A stretch of 28,969 bases of DNA from Planctomycetota bacterium (GTDB taxonomy: Bacteria; Planctomycetota; B15-G4). The notes beneath the pieces were generated by a model. That model ran no database searches. It saw only the letters and a program-made list of their open reading frames with translations, and was not told where the DNA came from. Location: positions 1 through 28,969 of the forward strand of contig JBBQUR010000033.1 in assembly GCA_038212275.1 (NCBI GenBank). The letters are read 5' to 3'. Position 1 is the stretch's first letter; every line of letters begins with the position of its first letter. This document shows positions 4,395-10,068 of the stretch, in pieces. Position numbers and translations under genes: made by a program.

Positions 4395-4495
4395 CGGGAG
4401 CCAGCGCTGCCGTCCGCGCCCCCTGACGGACAACAAGGCTCTCCGCTCTCCCCGATGCCCCATCCCCGCAACATCCGGTTCAGCACGCTGCGCGC

Positions 4496-4501
4496 TACCA
4501 T
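4496..4501 (+). promoter_or_regulatory. Putative -10 box (TACCAT) for a leaderless transcript
   Basis: TAnnnT lies 7 nt before ATG 4509, which has no SD sequence. Confidence 0.4.
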
Positions 4502-4508
4502 GCCGCGC

Positions 4509-5642
4509 ATGACACGAGAGGCGATCGGCGACGGCACGGATCGACGCGAGTTCCTGACGCAGGGCGGCGCGTTGCTCGCGGCCGTCTCGCTCGGCGCCGC
4601 CTTGCCCGCCGCAGCGTGCGTGAGCACGGCGGCTCAGGACAGCAGGCCAGCCCGGCGCCCTCCGCCCGACCGACTCATCGTCTCGACCTGGAACTTCGGG
4701 CTCGCGGCGAACTCCGTCGCCTGGCAGCGCCTCGTGCAGGGCGCCGCGCATCCCCTCGATGCCTGCGAGGCCGGCGTCATGGTGCCGGAGGCCGACCCCG
4801 CCGTGACCTCGGTCGGCTACGGCGGCGCGCCCAATGCGGCGGGCATTGTCGAGCTGGACAGCGCCGTGATGCGCGGTGACACGCTCGACTGCGGCGCCGT
4901 GGCTGCGCTGCAGAACATCCTGCATCCGGTCTCGGTCGCGCGCGCGGTCATGGAGCGCACGCCGCACGTGCTGCTCGTCGGCGACGGTGCGCTGCAGTTC
5001 GCGCGCCGGCTGGGTTTCCACGAGCAGGACATGCTGGCGCCGGCGGCCCGCACGGCGTGGGAAGAGTGGCAGCGCGGACGCCCGCAGCAGCTCGAGCCCT
5101 GGGAGCAGCCGCGCTCGACGGCCGGCGCTGTCGGCGCTGTCGGCGCTACCGGCGCTGTCGGCGCCACGGCTCCCGCAGCGGCGGCCGCACCCGTCGCCAC
5201 GCCGGCGGATCACGACACCATCGGGATGATCGCGCTGGATCACGGCCGTCTCGCCACCGCCGTGACCACGAGCGGGCTGGCCTTCAAGCTGCCGGGACGC
5301 GTGGGCGACTCGCCGATCATCGGCGCGGGCAGCTACTGCGACGACGAGGTCGGCGCGGCCGTCTCCACCGGGCTGGGCGAGGAAGTCATTCGCGCCGGCG
5401 GCTGCGTCTCGATCATCGAGGCGATGCGCCACGGCAGCAGTCCGCAGCGCGCCTGCCTCGACGTGCTCGCCCGCGTGCGCCGCACGCTGGAGCGCACCGG
5501 CAAGCCGCGCGACACGCTCATCGCCTTCCTCGTCGTGAGCCGCAGCGGCGAGGTCTACGGCGCCGCGCTGCGCAGCGGCTTCCAGTATGCGTTGACCGAT
5601 GCTGGCGGCTCGCGACTGATCGACGCCGACGTCCTGCCATGA
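4509..5642 (+). CDS. N(4)-(beta-N-acetylglucosaminyl)-L-asparaginase (glycosylasparaginase, Ntn hydrolase), Tat-exported
   Basis: Tat motif DRREFL followed by a hydrophobic helix. STWNFG, SVGYGG.PN, HD|TIG autoprocessing site, TTSGLAFKLPGRVGDSPIIGAG, TGLGEEVIR. The start could alternatively be 4500. Confidence 0.93.
   Translation: MTREAIGDGTDRREFLTQGGALLAAVSLGAALPAAACVSTAAQDSRPARRPPPDRLIVSTWNFGLAANSVAWQRLVQGAAHPLDACEAGVMVPEADPAVTSVGYGGAPNAAGIVELDSAVMRGDTLDCGAVAALQNILHPVSVARAVMERTPHVLLVGDGALQFARRLGFHEQDMLAPAARTAWEEWQRGRPQQLEPWEQPRSTAGAVGAVGATGAVGATAPAAAAAPVATPADHDTIGMIALDHGRLATAVTTSGLAFKLPGRVGDSPIIGAGSYCDDEVGAAVSTGLGEEVIRAGGCVSIIEAMRHGSSPQRACLDVLARVRRTLERTGKPRDTLIAFLVVSRSGEVYGAALRSGFQYALTDAGGSRLIDADVLP
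5124..5168 (+). repeat. 5 x 9-bp in-frame tandem repeat (GGCGCTGTC; GAV/GAT)
   Basis: ggcgctgtc ggcgctgtc ggcgctacc ggcgctgtc ggcgccacg, read directly. Confidence 0.9.
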
Positions 5643-5719
5643 TCGAGCGGCCGCATGACGACGCGCGCCGCGACGACAGTCGCCATGAGCCAGGCTCCGG
5701 CGACCACGGAGGCCTCCCC

Positions 5720-6193
5720 ATGCCCGACCACACGCCGCACACCTTCCGCTCGGCGCAGCTGCAGCCCGGCGAGAGCTGCCGCATCAGCGAAGCCGAGTGG
5801 TATCACTTCCTGGAGCTGGTCGAACCGCTGCACCAGTGGGGCGCGGCCTTTCTCTTCGACGAGGAGCGCGCGCCGGCAGCCGCACGCGCCAGTGCTGGCG
5901 GCCCGCTGCGCCTCGTGCGCATCTACCTGCGCGACGATCGCGCCCGCTTCGGCGGCGAGAGCGGCACGGCGGTCGGCGAGCACTCGTGTGTGCGCCTTGA
6001 CGCGCTGCGCTCGGCGGCGGCGCGCGCGGGCGTGGAGCGCGTGGAGCAGACCTCGCGCGACGCGGCCGACATCATCACGGCCCTGCAGGACAAGGCCTCG
6101 CTCTCCGTGGCCGACATGGAAGCGCAGGAAGCGGCCAGCAACCGCTTCGTGCAGACCGCCGAGGCCCTCTACCGCGAGCTGCTCGCAAACTGA
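5720..6193 (+). CDS. Hypothetical protein (157 aa)
   Basis: GGAGG RBS before ATG 5720 and strongly GC3-biased codons. An alternative ATG at 5639 overlaps the upstream stop (ATGA). No family recognised. Confidence 0.7.
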   Translation: MPDHTPHTFRSAQLQPGESCRISEAEWYHFLELVEPLHQWGAAFLFDEERAPAAARASAGGPLRLVRIYLRDDRARFGGESGTAVGEHSCVRLDALRSAAARAGVERVEQTSRDAADIITALQDKASLSVADMEAQEAASNRFVQTAEALYRELLAN

Positions 6194-6902: not shown

Positions 6903-8720
6903 TCAGAGGAGGCTGCGCGACGGCGCGGTCTCGCCCGACATCGCGGCAAGCGTTGCCTCCGACGTCGCCTGGCTGGTGCGCGCGGACGTCGCTTCGCGCG
7001 GGGGGCCGGCCGCGCGGCCCGTCGCACCACGGCGCGGGCGTTGTTCGTAAGGCAGGCCCAGAGGCGGCAGCTGCGCCAGCGGCAACAGCGTGCGGCGCGT
7101 GAAGACCGACGCGGCGCGCATCTTCATGAATCGCAGGAAAAAGCGGGGAAAACGCGCCCAGCTCATGTCGTAGCCCTGGTGCGGGGCGGGCCAGCGCGAC
7201 AGGTTCCAGGCCTTGGTGAAGGCATACCAGACGCGCGCGGCACGGAACCAGCCCAGCCAGGACGGGATGCGCCAGAGCCCCGTGTCGTTCAGGAAGTTGG
7301 CCAGCACCGGGTGGAAGAAGTTGCGCACCTCGAGCCGCGCCGCGTAGGGCTTCGCGAAGCCCTTGTGATAGCGGCGCATGGTGGAGATGTCGCCGCTCTC
7401 GGCGACGCGCGAAATCGTGTCGGCCATCTCCTGCGAGATCGTGCCCGCGTTCACGGACTGCTGCAGGATGTCCGCGCCGGCCCAGATGTCCAGCCAGTAG
7501 ACCGAGACGACGTCCGGCGGATGCGCGCGATAGAAGCGCTCCATGTAGGCGCAGTCCGCTTCGGTCTCGCTGGGCAGGCCGAAGATCTGGTCCACGAAGA
7601 GGCCGATGCCGTGCTTGCGCGCCAGATCGATGGCGCGCGCGATCTGCGCCTCGCTGTTGGGGCGCCCGATGAGCTTTCGGATGTCCGCGTTGAGCGACTG
7701 CACGCCCATCTGGATCTGCGCGCAGCCGATCTGCTTGAGGTAGACGATCGTGCGCTCGTTGATGTTGTTCGGGATGGCGAAGCACTTGAACGGGATGCGC
7801 TCGGCATCCGTCATGCGCTCGGCCAGCTCCTTGAGCCACGGCTCGTCGCAGCAGATGTCGTCGTCGTTCACGCGCATGATGCGCGGGTTGTGGCGCGCCT
7901 TGATCTCGCGCAGTTCCTCCAGCACCTTGTCCACCGACTGGCTGCGCACGAAGTCCTTCGTGTACATCCAGTCCTTACGGTCGCCGTAGTACTCGCGCCG
8001 GTAGTAGTTGTTGCTGCAGAAGGTGCAGCCCCACGGGCAGCCGCGGCGCCACTCGACCATGTGGCCGGTGTCGAAGGGCACGCCGATCTGCAGGAAGAGG
8101 TCCTTGTCCGGGCGGCCGTAGCGGTCGAGGTCCGGCTCGTAGGGGCGCAGCGGGTTCTCCCGGTAGACGCGGCCGGCGGCGTCCGGGCTGGCCGTGCTGC
8201 CCGTGCTGCCCGTGCTGCCCGTGCTGGCCGTGCTGCCCGTGCCGCGCGCTGCGGGCTCCCTCCAGGCGAGGTTCGGGATGGAGGTGTCCACCGCGCCGTC
8301 GGCCAGGCTGTTGACGAGTTCCACGAAGGAGTCCTCGGCCTCGCCGCGGACGATCCAGTCGATGGTGCCTGTCTCGAGCACGGCCTGCGCGCTGGCCGTC
8401 GCGTGGTAGCCGCCGGCGACGCGCACGACGCCCGGCAGCCGGCGGCCGATCTCCGCAGCATATTTCATGCACCAGTCGGCGTTGGCGGTGAGCATCGAGA
8501 AGGCCACCACATCCGGGCGGAACTCCTCGACCCGCGCCAGCAGCTGGCTCTCGAAGGAGCACAGCCTGGCAAGCAGCCGGCTGTTGTATTCGTGCCGGAA
8601 GAAGTCGAACAGGCGCGGATCGAAGACCAGACCGGTGGTGTGGCCTGCGCGCCGGAGGGCTGCCGAGAGGTACTGGATGCCCAGACTCTCGACTTCGTTG
8701 TAGAGGAACAGGACGCGCAA
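6903..8720 (-). CDS. B12-binding-domain radical SAM protein
   Basis: N-terminal SLGIQYLSAALRRAGH...PDVVAFS...VAGGYHAT...RGEAE cobalamin-binding module, RGCPWGCTFC (CxxxCxxC), MGVQS and IFGLPSET. TTG start. Confidence 0.93.
   Translation of the reverse strand: MRVLFLYNEVESLGIQYLSAALRRAGHTTGLVFDPRLFDFFRHEYNSRLLARLCSFESQLLARVEEFRPDVVAFSMLTANADWCMKYAAEIGRRLPGVVRVAGGYHATASAQAVLETGTIDWIVRGEAEDSFVELVNSLADGAVDTSIPNLAWREPAARGTGSTASTGSTGSTGSTASPDAAGRVYRENPLRPYEPDLDRYGRPDKDLFLQIGVPFDTGHMVEWRRGCPWGCTFCSNNYYRREYYGDRKDWMYTKDFVRSQSVDKVLEELREIKARHNPRIMRVNDDDICCDEPWLKELAERMTDAERIPFKCFAIPNNINERTIVYLKQIGCAQIQMGVQSLNADIRKLIGRPNSEAQIARAIDLARKHGIGLFVDQIFGLPSETEADCAYMERFYRAHPPDVVSVYWLDIWAGADILQQSVNAGTISQEMADTISRVAESGDISTMRRYHKGFAKPYAARLEVRNFFHPVLANFLNDTGLWRIPSWLGWFRAARVWYAFTKAWNLSRWPAPHQGYDMSWARFPRFFLRFMKMRAASVFTRRTLLPLAQLPPLGLPYEQRPRRGATGRAAGPPREATSARTSQATSEATLAAMSGETAPSRSLL
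8191..8244 (-). repeat. 6 x 9-bp in-frame tandem repeat (GST/AST)
   Basis: (c/g)ccgtgctg units encode GTGSTASTGSTGSTGSTAS between the B12 and radical SAM domains. Confidence 0.9.
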
Positions 8721-8924: not shown

Positions 8925-8960
8925 TCACCGGTTGACAAGATGGCGCGCCGGTGATTTCGT
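8925..8960 (+). promoter_or_regulatory. Putative sigma70 promoter of the LysW-like gene with an inverted repeat around the -35
   Basis: Perfect TTGACA at 8932-8937, 17-nt spacer, weak TGa-TTTCGT -10. TCACCGG (8925-8931) and CCGGTGA (8948-8954) form an inverted repeat. Confidence 0.4.
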
Positions 8961-9032
8961 GCTGCGCAGAGTCCGGCCCCGTCCCGGACAACGGATCAGC
9001 AACAGCTCGGCAACAGCTCGTGGAGTGGCGCA

Positions 9033-9212
9033 ATGTGGGAGTGCATGGAGTGTTCCGAAGAGAACGATCTCGACCCCGACGCGGAGGAGGGTCAGATCGT
9101 CGAGTGCGTCGAATGCGGAACGGAGTTCGAGATCGTGCGCAAGGAGCCGCTCGCTCTCTCGCCGCTTGCGGCCGGTGACAGCGAGAGCGGCGGCGACGAC
9201 TGGGACGATTGA
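9033..9212 (+). CDS. lysW: LysW-like amino-group carrier protein (zinc ribbon, acidic), 59 aa; absent from the ORF track
   Basis: Translated by hand: MWECMECSEENDLDPDAEEGQIVECVECGTEFEIVRKEPLALSPLAAGDSESGGDDWDD*. Two CxxC pairs, G.IV.C..CG.E.E.V...PL.L pattern and GGAG RBS. The terminus DDWDD differs from canonical EDWGE, so the symbol marks family, not proven function. Confidence 0.8.
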   Translation: MWECMECSEENDLDPDAEEGQIVECVECGTEFEIVRKEPLALSPLAAGDSESGGDDWDD

Positions 9213-9306: not shown

Positions 9307-10068
9307 TCAGAGCGGCTTGCGTGCCACCATCACCAGCGAGTGGCCCGCCGGTGAGCTCACGTGCCGCAGCAGCTTCGCCTCGCTGCTGAAGATTCCCGCG
9401 AGCATCTCGTTCGTCCAGTGCGGGATGCCGATGCCGACGTTGCTGCCAGCCTTGCTGTCATCGGGCTTGCGGATGGACTGCAGCGCCTTCAGCGCAAGCA
9501 CGGCGGGCAGGATCACGGGAAACAGCCACACGTTGATGTAGCTGCCCTTCAGGATCTCGAACCCCGCCGAACGCGCCTTGCCGGTCATCTCGCCCAGCGT
9601 GTAGCGGCGCACGTGGTGCGTGATGCGATCCTGCTGCGCGAAGAGAAACTGCCACGCAGGTCCTGACGCGATGAGGATCCCGCCCGGCTTGAGCATGCGG
9701 TGGATTTCCCGCATCGAACCGACGTCGTCCTCGATGTGCTCCAGTGCGTCGAAGGCCGTGACGCAGTCCAGCGTCGCGTCGCCGAAACAGCCGTCCGGCC
9801 CGTTGCAGGCGACGAGGCGCGGAAAGTTCCGCGCGGCGCAGTGCTGCAGCCCCTTGAGCGTGACGTCGGTGCCGATGACGCGCCCGTACTGCGCCATCGG
9901 CTCGAGCATGCCGCCCACGCCGCAGCCCAGGTCCATGAGCAGTCGGGGGCCGCCCGGGTCGCGCCGGACGTAGCTGTCCAGCAGGGACACGAAGATGGCG
10001 CGGCGCCCGCGGAACCACCAGTGCGTCTGCTCGAGTTCCAGGAACTCCTGGTAGACGGCGTCTTCCAT
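9307..10068 (-). CDS. Class I SAM-dependent methyltransferase
   Basis: MEDAVY...HWWFRGRR start, motif I LMDLGCGVG, AFDALEHIEDD, LKPGG, HHVRRY. This type is often found beside glycosyltransferases. Confidence 0.92.
   Translation of the reverse strand: MEDAVYQEFLELEQTHWWFRGRRAIFVSLLDSYVRRDPGGPRLLMDLGCGVGGMLEPMAQYGRVIGTDVTLKGLQHCAARNFPRLVACNGPDGCFGDATLDCVTAFDALEHIEDDVGSMREIHRMLKPGGILIASGPAWQFLFAQQDRITHHVRRYTLGEMTGKARSAGFEILKGSYINVWLFPVILPAVLALKALQSIRKPDDSKAGSNVGIGIPHWTNEMLAGIFSSEAKLLRHVSSPAGHSLVMVARKPL

Follow-up and report, generated by a model that had tools for sequence, protein, structure and literature searches.

The closest described relatives of the protein considered here are the LysW and ArgW carriers and the LysW-like AmCPs of natural-product pathways. 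In the true carriers the last Glu is essential, with the substitution E54A abolishing function, and the ligase LysX reads the EDWGE motif, according to the accessible part of PMC10433800; docking of AmCPs is described as electrostatic in the accessible part of PMC11726168. We analysed a window of 28,969 nucleotides, the whole stretch of DNA under study, from a Planctomycetota contig in which a first-pass annotation had picked out a LysW-like carrier ending in DDWDD as a candidate for an undescribed system. By the tests run, the protein is a member of the LysW family that stands outside the carrier system, and there is no self-contained system at its locus. Most likely, it is a paralogue of LysW that no longer takes part in carrying amino groups.

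The LysW-like gene (9033..9212, + strand) runs from ATG to TGA behind a GGAG Shine-Dalgarno-like site (9022..9025, +) and encodes 59 amino acids, with 20 Asp/Glu against 2 Lys/Arg, CxxC pairs at residues 4/7 and 25/28 and the C-terminus DDWDD. That this small acidic reading frame is a real gene, as had been supposed, is confirmed: it is called by a codon model trained on its own genome, it is matched by the Pfam model PF21344 (Zn_ribbon_LysW) at 45.1 bits (cut-off 27), and its domain shows a pN of 0.010 and a pS of 0.40 against the nearest syntenic relative (locus L037). It is the sole PF21344 match above cut-off in the genome. The supposed LysW-like identity was borne out by this HMM search, although the equivalog TIGR01206, a model of the whole LysW protein, gave 28.3 bits against a cut-off of 53.2, which the true LysW of a relative (G014) exceeds with 59.2 bits. 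Close homologues fall in Planctomycetota by their source names, and an Atlas search with the protein returned PF21344 clusters only.

PF21344, an AlphaFold2 model and Foldseek all support a zinc-ribbon domain at residues 3-44 (9039..9164, +; Cys4, Cys7, Cys25 and Cys28), followed by a flexible acidic tail (9165..9209, +) with the end D-W-D-D. The model has a pLDDT of 82-93 for residues 1-40 and 60-66 for the tail. The best solved relatives by phmmer are the LysW structures 3wwl and 5k2m (E 6e-5); the top five Foldseek rows are LysW chains with probabilities of 0.91-0.99, yet with E values of at least 0.045 (none at E 0.001), and in a wide fold search the LysW chain 3vpb_F was matched with a Z of 3.8 and an rmsd of 1.2 over 38 residues. 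The acidity of the surface is LysW-like as judged by composition alone, and the median net acidic charge of the domain is 12 in the LysW-like clade versus 8 in true LysW. Judged from 14 pairwise comparisons (domain pN 0.01-0.17, tail pN 0.18-0.49), the zinc-ribbon domain is under purifying selection and the tail is relaxed. The four cysteines form the conserved core of the domain, and many of its surface acidic residues are invariant across 24 close sequences.

No LysX was found, either near the gene, as the first-pass annotation had stated, or anywhere in the window or its own genome, where the best match to TIGR02144 is a RimK-like protein at 85 bits against a cut-off of 275.6. The LysX proteins of three relatives gave 0, 1 (68 aa, 46 bits) and 0 matches to this genome by tblastn. 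Because the genome is 91% complete, the case for the absence of LysX is strong but falls short of proof. Of 42 genomes of the class, only the four that have a LysW ending in EDWGE give LysX-level matches (219-321 bits, with two above cut-off), and 7 of the 9 family genomes bearing the LysW-like gene have no such match. Two of these four, G007 and G014, carry the LysW-like gene together with a true lysW-lysXYZJK operon; since the two genes lie at separate loci, the LysW-like gene is a paralogue and not a variant orthologue.

The biosynthetic genes of the own genome are those of the DAP and acetyl routes: matches over cut-off were obtained for DapF, DapD, ArgC, ArgB and N-acetylornithine carbamoyltransferase, and a lysA-like decarboxylase, under cut-off, lies beside dapA-dapD. 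The LysZ, LysJ and LysK models found nothing over cut-off in this genome, where the nearest kinase, reductase and transaminase homologues sit in the arg operon. The same operon contains, between argG and argC, a gene for a 347-aa protein (L074:3399-4442, G000:C19) that has no Pfam or NCBIfam match.

The C-terminal end was compared among 23 homologues and across 24 syntenic loci, the latter being that of the window, those of 8 family genomes and 15 taken from 20 metagenome loci; the five left out were one duplicate, two partial matches and two loci from another lineage, and a second set of 8 loci added none (six duplicates, one acidobacterial locus and one non-homologue). The 24 loci are kin and not independent, and all the genomes are incomplete assemblies. 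The DDWDD end is no private mutation or error, given that none of the 23 homologues ends in EDWGE: they end in DWEE (8), DWED (6), DWDE (5), DWDD (2), DLDE (1) or DDEE (1), so that the last residue is Glu in 15 and Asp in 8. The two nearest relatives (95% and 90%) end in DWDE. Acidic ends recur among them, D-W-D-D itself is restricted to 2 of 23, and no ligase is linked to the gene. At the 24 syntenic loci the last residue is E in 12, D in 10, G in one and Y in one (acidic in 22), and the Trp is third-last at 16 loci, at another position in 4 and absent in 4, with the Gly and Tyr ends and the shifted Trp in deeper branches.

Along a tree built from the neighbouring methyltransferase, the last residue has switched between Asp and Glu at least four times among the 15 rows whose small protein ends in D-[WL]-acid-acid. 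Length drifts as well. From the conserved Pro (Pro39 in the 59-aa protein) to the end there are 19-38 residues in 23 rows of the clade and 21 residues in 14 of these, including the protein studied here, which form one subclade; the distance is 16-17 residues in 21 of 22 true LysW (EDWG[EQ]) rows, the remaining row having been mis-anchored by the length-measuring pattern. Across these alignments the tail is conserved in charge and not in length or last residue, and Asp-Glu swapping on a tail of drifting length is a poor fit for LysX-type carrier chemistry. The fixed length and Trp register within the subclade nevertheless show that something still reads the tail end.

The gene appears to have a promoter of its own. 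A predicted sigma70-like element (8932..8960, +) consists of TTGACA at 8932-8937, TG at 8952-8953 and the -10 box TTTCGT at 8955-8960. TTGACA is found 77-129 nt upstream of the gene at all 24 loci and the full motif, TTGACA-N14-TG-N-T-N4-T, at 23 of them; in the own genome the full motif occurs once among 199 TTGACA sites, namely here. The A that drives promoter opening from the second position of the -10 box is replaced at 23 of 24 loci (by G in 19, C in 3 and T in 1), and comparable upstream sites of the own genome have it in 31 of 53 cases, versus 9 of 30 in an antisense control. A standard promoter and terminator scan gave no match at the gene because it demands A at this place. An in-frame ATG lies 7-8 nt 3′ of the -10 box in 9 of 24 loci, as it would in leaderless transcripts, which supports the placement of the promoter. 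Transcription would then be weak or activator-dependent. The motif was absent from 44 loci upstream of Acidobacteriota paralogues or true lysW, and no conserved operator-like palindrome was seen by eye upstream of the LysW-like gene. In one branch (L026, L042, L044-L048, L051, L053) the protein has become longer at its N-terminus by about 21-29 residues, the added part beginning 7-8 nt 3′ of the -10 box; this may be a 5′ leader turned coding or a leaderless start.

LysX-independent paralogues are not confined to Planctomycetota. In a sample of 101 genomes of Acidobacteriota (the phylum of locus L063), PF21344 is passed in 34 and LysX is present in 12, and 19 of the 20 genomes in which a copy not ending in EDWG[EQ] was read are without LysX. 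The tails of these paralogues are polyacidic and 16-47 residues long, and their neighbourhoods differ between lineages, with a VWA protein, a rhomboid or LarE in some and a small CarboxypepD_reg protein in others. This last, a conserved 85-130 aa protein with a CarboxypepD_reg domain, follows or flanks the paralogue at L075, L090, L093, L095, L097, L098, L100, L101 and L055, where a divergent rhomboid often joins. A profile search gave 5995 matches, true LysW included, among 8000 scored candidates; the best 120 comprise 94 acidic tails, 11 DW-acid-acid ends, 3 canonical-like and 12 other ends. Proteins of the acidobacterial genera Edaphobacter and Granulicella, which have cultured members, are among those named in this search. 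Tandem LysW-like zinc ribbons (two, three or seven) occur in the distant matches P0026, P0031, P0033, P0034, P0035 and P0045. In a tree of 66 rows and only 45 columns, the Planctomycetota copies form one clade (100/97) confined to one family, and a branch (97/90) places them beside the acidobacterial paralogues and separates both from 22 true LysW rows; the same 45 columns do not reject the alternative that they arose from the lysW of their own family (p-AU 0.19). Some 55-residue forms that end in DWEE, DWSE or DWNE have retained the canonical length and could bridge EDWGE to the ends seen in Planctomycetota; in one LysX-free genome such a form immediately precedes larE.

Two further variants were observed. 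Genome G190, in which LysX scores nowhere above cut-off, encodes a LysW-like protein of canonical length that ends in EDWSE (L148:5411-5587) and is followed by a class I/II aminotransferase and GTP cyclohydrolase I. The other variant, found in 4 of the 12 LysX-positive Acidobacteriota genomes, is a LysW of canonical length that ends in EDWGQ, with Gln in place of Glu (L085/L149 in G046, L086 in G052, L103/L150 in G094, L104 in G118). Two of these clusters were read, and both encode, between lysY and lysZ, an EgtC-like Ntn amidohydrolase starting MCR; the two proteins are 42% identical to each other and match 4zfj by phmmer with E 2e-6. No LysK over cut-off was found in the four EDWGQ genomes, nor in the EDWGE-bearing G054, and the amidohydrolase is a candidate LysK replacement or Gln deamidase. 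No literature on it in EDWGQ lysW clusters was found. A search of freely accessible literature for LysX-independent LysW paralogues likewise found no description; the lysW of PMC5584792 is, in the accessible part of that paper, a different gene, a transporter. The database label 'lysine biosynthesis protein LysW' for such paralogues would wrongly imply an aminoadipate pathway in DAP-route genomes.

What might such a protein do? We give an even chance to a role as a non-covalent acidic docking module whose cytoplasmic partner is encoded in trans. A single-gene transcript, at a low or activator-dependent level, would yield a protein whose four cysteines bind one Zn and which attaches non-covalently to a basic surface on that partner. 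The contacts would be made by the acidic face of the ribbon and the aromatic-acidic tail end, as by LysW on its enzymes, and the protein would be an accessory factor, i.e., an adaptor, chaperone or competitive regulator, for which LarE would be the best lead as partner. We count the electrostatic docking of AmCPs as support, the protein being in this sense a zinc-stabilised polyanion that reuses such docking. The fallback offered by the first-pass annotation, a repurposed metal-binding protein, agrees with a LysW-family zinc ribbon that has no LysX. Against non-covalent docking, the fixed 21-residue tail of the subclade, the EDWGE-like Trp register and the acidic ends at 22 of 24 loci would also fit a relaxed covalent carrier.

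Such a covalent carrier, serving a carboxylate-activating enzyme in trans, is unlikely, the most plausible enzyme being the PP-loop protein LarE or a RimK-like ligase. Activation of the C-terminal carboxylate or of either acidic side chain may be how Asp or Glu is tolerated. LarE adenylylates a carboxyl group, in the accessible part of PMC9283937. Of the 101 Acidobacteriota genomes, 5 encode a LysX-independent paralogue immediately ahead of larE (L091, L092, L094, L106/L143; G136:C7:63048-64104), with stop/start overlap at L091, L094 and L143; the L091 paralogue has a tail of canonical length ending in EEDWNE, and the DWEE, DWSE and DWNE ends of this type overlap with those of the Planctomycetota clade. 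LarE is also enriched in paralogue-bearing Acidobacteriota (19 of 20 genomes versus 57 of 81 others; nominal p 0.02, the genomes not being independent). A LarE match is present in 16 of 16 family genomes, and the own LarE retains the CxxC...C motif. However, the same distribution includes all seven family genomes without the LysW-like gene, so that LarE does not discriminate within the family, and larE adjoins the gene at none of the 24 Planctomycetota loci. The own larE is on another contig behind larB- and larC-like genes, an arrangement explained without a carrier. The Gly and Tyr ends and shifted Trp of the deeper branches also speak against covalent loading. A complex prediction for the 59-aa protein with the own LarE scored 0.01 against a mark of 0.32, with controls that did not fold, and counts neither for nor against this pairing. 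RimK-like ligases (one of the own genome at C5:168685-169395) and cyanophycin synthetase were rejected as partners, the former not tracking the LysW-like gene and the latter being present in 4 of 9 gene-bearing versus 2 of 7 other family genomes. Cyanophycin synthetase is followed by a second, partial CphA-like gene (G000:C20:32017-36747), a pair found in 5 of 16 family genomes.

A more specific proposal, which we regard as quite doubtful, is that LysX-free LysW paralogues constitute an undescribed carrier class for LarE-type PP-loop enzymes, in which the terminal carboxylate would be adenylylated and would carry sulfur or another group, with larE coupled in some Acidobacteriota and, in the Planctomycetota family studied here, a carrier that acts in trans and is expressed from a promoter of its own. 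If covalent cargo or a LarE partnership proved true, it would amount to new carrier chemistry.

It is rather unlikely that the protein is a stand-alone metal-handling or redox mini-protein, a buffer or donor of Zn, Fe or Ni or a rubredoxin-like protein, with the tail serving solubility or cation binding. The cysteines as the conserved core, a single gene with a promoter-like element of its own, and a tail kept across phyla in composition and not in sequence (94 of the best 120 profile matches acidic-tailed) are all in keeping with it. The invariant acidic residues of the domain surface, though, fit a partner interface better than metal storage, and the loci have neither a constant metal-transport or redox neighbour nor a visible operator-like palindrome. 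It is improbable that the protein mimics nucleic acid or binds RNA polymerase, perhaps to tune its own unusual promoter. RNA polymerase zinc ribbons do appear weakly among the fold and sequence rows, and the -10 box is conserved in a non-consensus form, but those rows are generic to zinc ribbons, lying far below LysW or tied with it (Foldseek at most 0.23 versus 0.97-0.99), and no link to transcription genes was found.

The neighbouring genes are as the first-pass annotation had them: a divergent B12-binding radical SAM gene (6903..8720, -), with an extended -10 element of its own at 8780-8772, and a convergent class I methyltransferase gene (9307..10068, -) with an orthologue in 16 of 16 family genomes. 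Further upstream are an Asparaginase_2 gene with a twin-arginine-like leader (4455..5642, +) and an unnamed conserved gene (5639..6193, +), the usual upstream neighbours where the radical SAM gene sits elsewhere. The common order is Asparaginase_2, unnamed gene, radical SAM (other strand, optional), LysW-like gene, convergent methyltransferase, YfhO-like membrane protein and sulfatase. The unnamed gene overlaps the asparaginase stop in most loci; its product, of about 135-180 aa, has invariant HQWG, RD and RxxVxxxE motifs, no Pfam or NCBIfam family and Atlas matches under 0.9. Ahead of its core domain (8194-8230 region) the radical SAM has an insertion of low-complexity Gly-Ser-Thr repeats, at which alignments of the relatives break.

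An Asp-specific carrier, or a substrate or partner of the radical SAM or methyltransferase, is very improbable, despite a radical SAM gene next door at 11 of the 21 loci for which upstream sequence is available and at any position in 8 of the 9 family genomes that bear the LysW-like gene, a methyltransferase convergent in 23 of 23 loci where called, and a beta-aspartyl-peptidase-like gene close by. The Asp beta-carboxyl, which the first-pass annotation had proposed as the site of attachment, is contradicted by the predominance of Glu as last residue, by the repeated switches and by the two Gly and Tyr ends. Its alternative of a radical SAM substrate or partner does no better: both enzymes are on the opposite strand, the radical SAM gene has its own -10 element, and at 10 of 21 loci, that of the nearest relative L037 among them, it is not next to the LysW-like gene. 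The radical SAM is found in 14 of 16 family genomes, among them 6 of the 7 without the LysW-like gene, which indicates that the enzyme does not need the small protein, and the methyltransferase is kept in 7 of 7. A dependence of the small protein on the radical SAM in trans would still be compatible with this distribution. The beta-aspartyl peptidase was rejected as a release enzyme, its twin-arginine-like leader pointing to export while the small protein has no such leader, and the peptidase being present also where the LysW-like gene is missing.

The LysW-like gene is present in 9 of 16 family genomes, and its losses are scattered over the tree (6 changes). Six gene-less relatives have an assembled site from which both the gene and the promoter motif have disappeared; a profile search found no remnant in the seven, G006 being uninformative as its contig ends at the site. 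The locus reads as an inherited gene order with repeated loss of the LysW-like gene. Such scattered absence might suggest a functionless relic of a lost lysine operon, which is highly improbable in view of the purifying selection, the conserved promoter-like element and the retention of the gene beside an intact true lysW in G007 and G014.

Finally, we compare the protein with known systems. LysW/ArgW of Thermus, Thermococcus, Sulfolobus and Natrinema (3wwl, 5k2m, 3vpb; TIGR01206; PF21344) share with it the four-cysteine zinc ribbon, the size, the acidic surface and an Asp-Trp near the end, the Trp being third from last in the 59-aa protein; it differs in having no EDWGE, a last residue that is Asp or Glu, a tail at least 5 residues longer, a TIGR01206 score under cut-off, no LysX in locus or genome, and a single gene in place of an operon member. 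ZitP (2nb9) ties with LysW as a fold match in the wide search (Z 3.5 versus 3.8) but is a weaker sequence match (E 0.53); zinc ribbons of the ZitP type have a protein-binding role and are domains of larger proteins. The natural-product AmCPs (vazabitide, ficellomycin and a Serratia cluster), as far as the accessible part of PMC11726168 describes them, are likewise acidic LysW-like proteins outside lysine synthesis; theirs are clustered with a ligase and tailoring enzymes, whereas none stands at the Planctomycetota locus. The acidobacterial LysX-independent paralogues are not a characterised family. They fall on the same side of the 45-column tree and share the lack of LysX, the acidic tails and the DWEE-type ends, and the Planctomycetota clade is set apart by its restriction to one family, its distance from larE and its unusual promoter element. 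The locus is a further, enzyme-free instance of this recurring uncharacterised group, a clean single-gene unit in which the protein is separated from its neighbours, and, together with the acidobacterial copies, it shows the LysW scaffold put to use in two phyla or more where the ligase is lacking.
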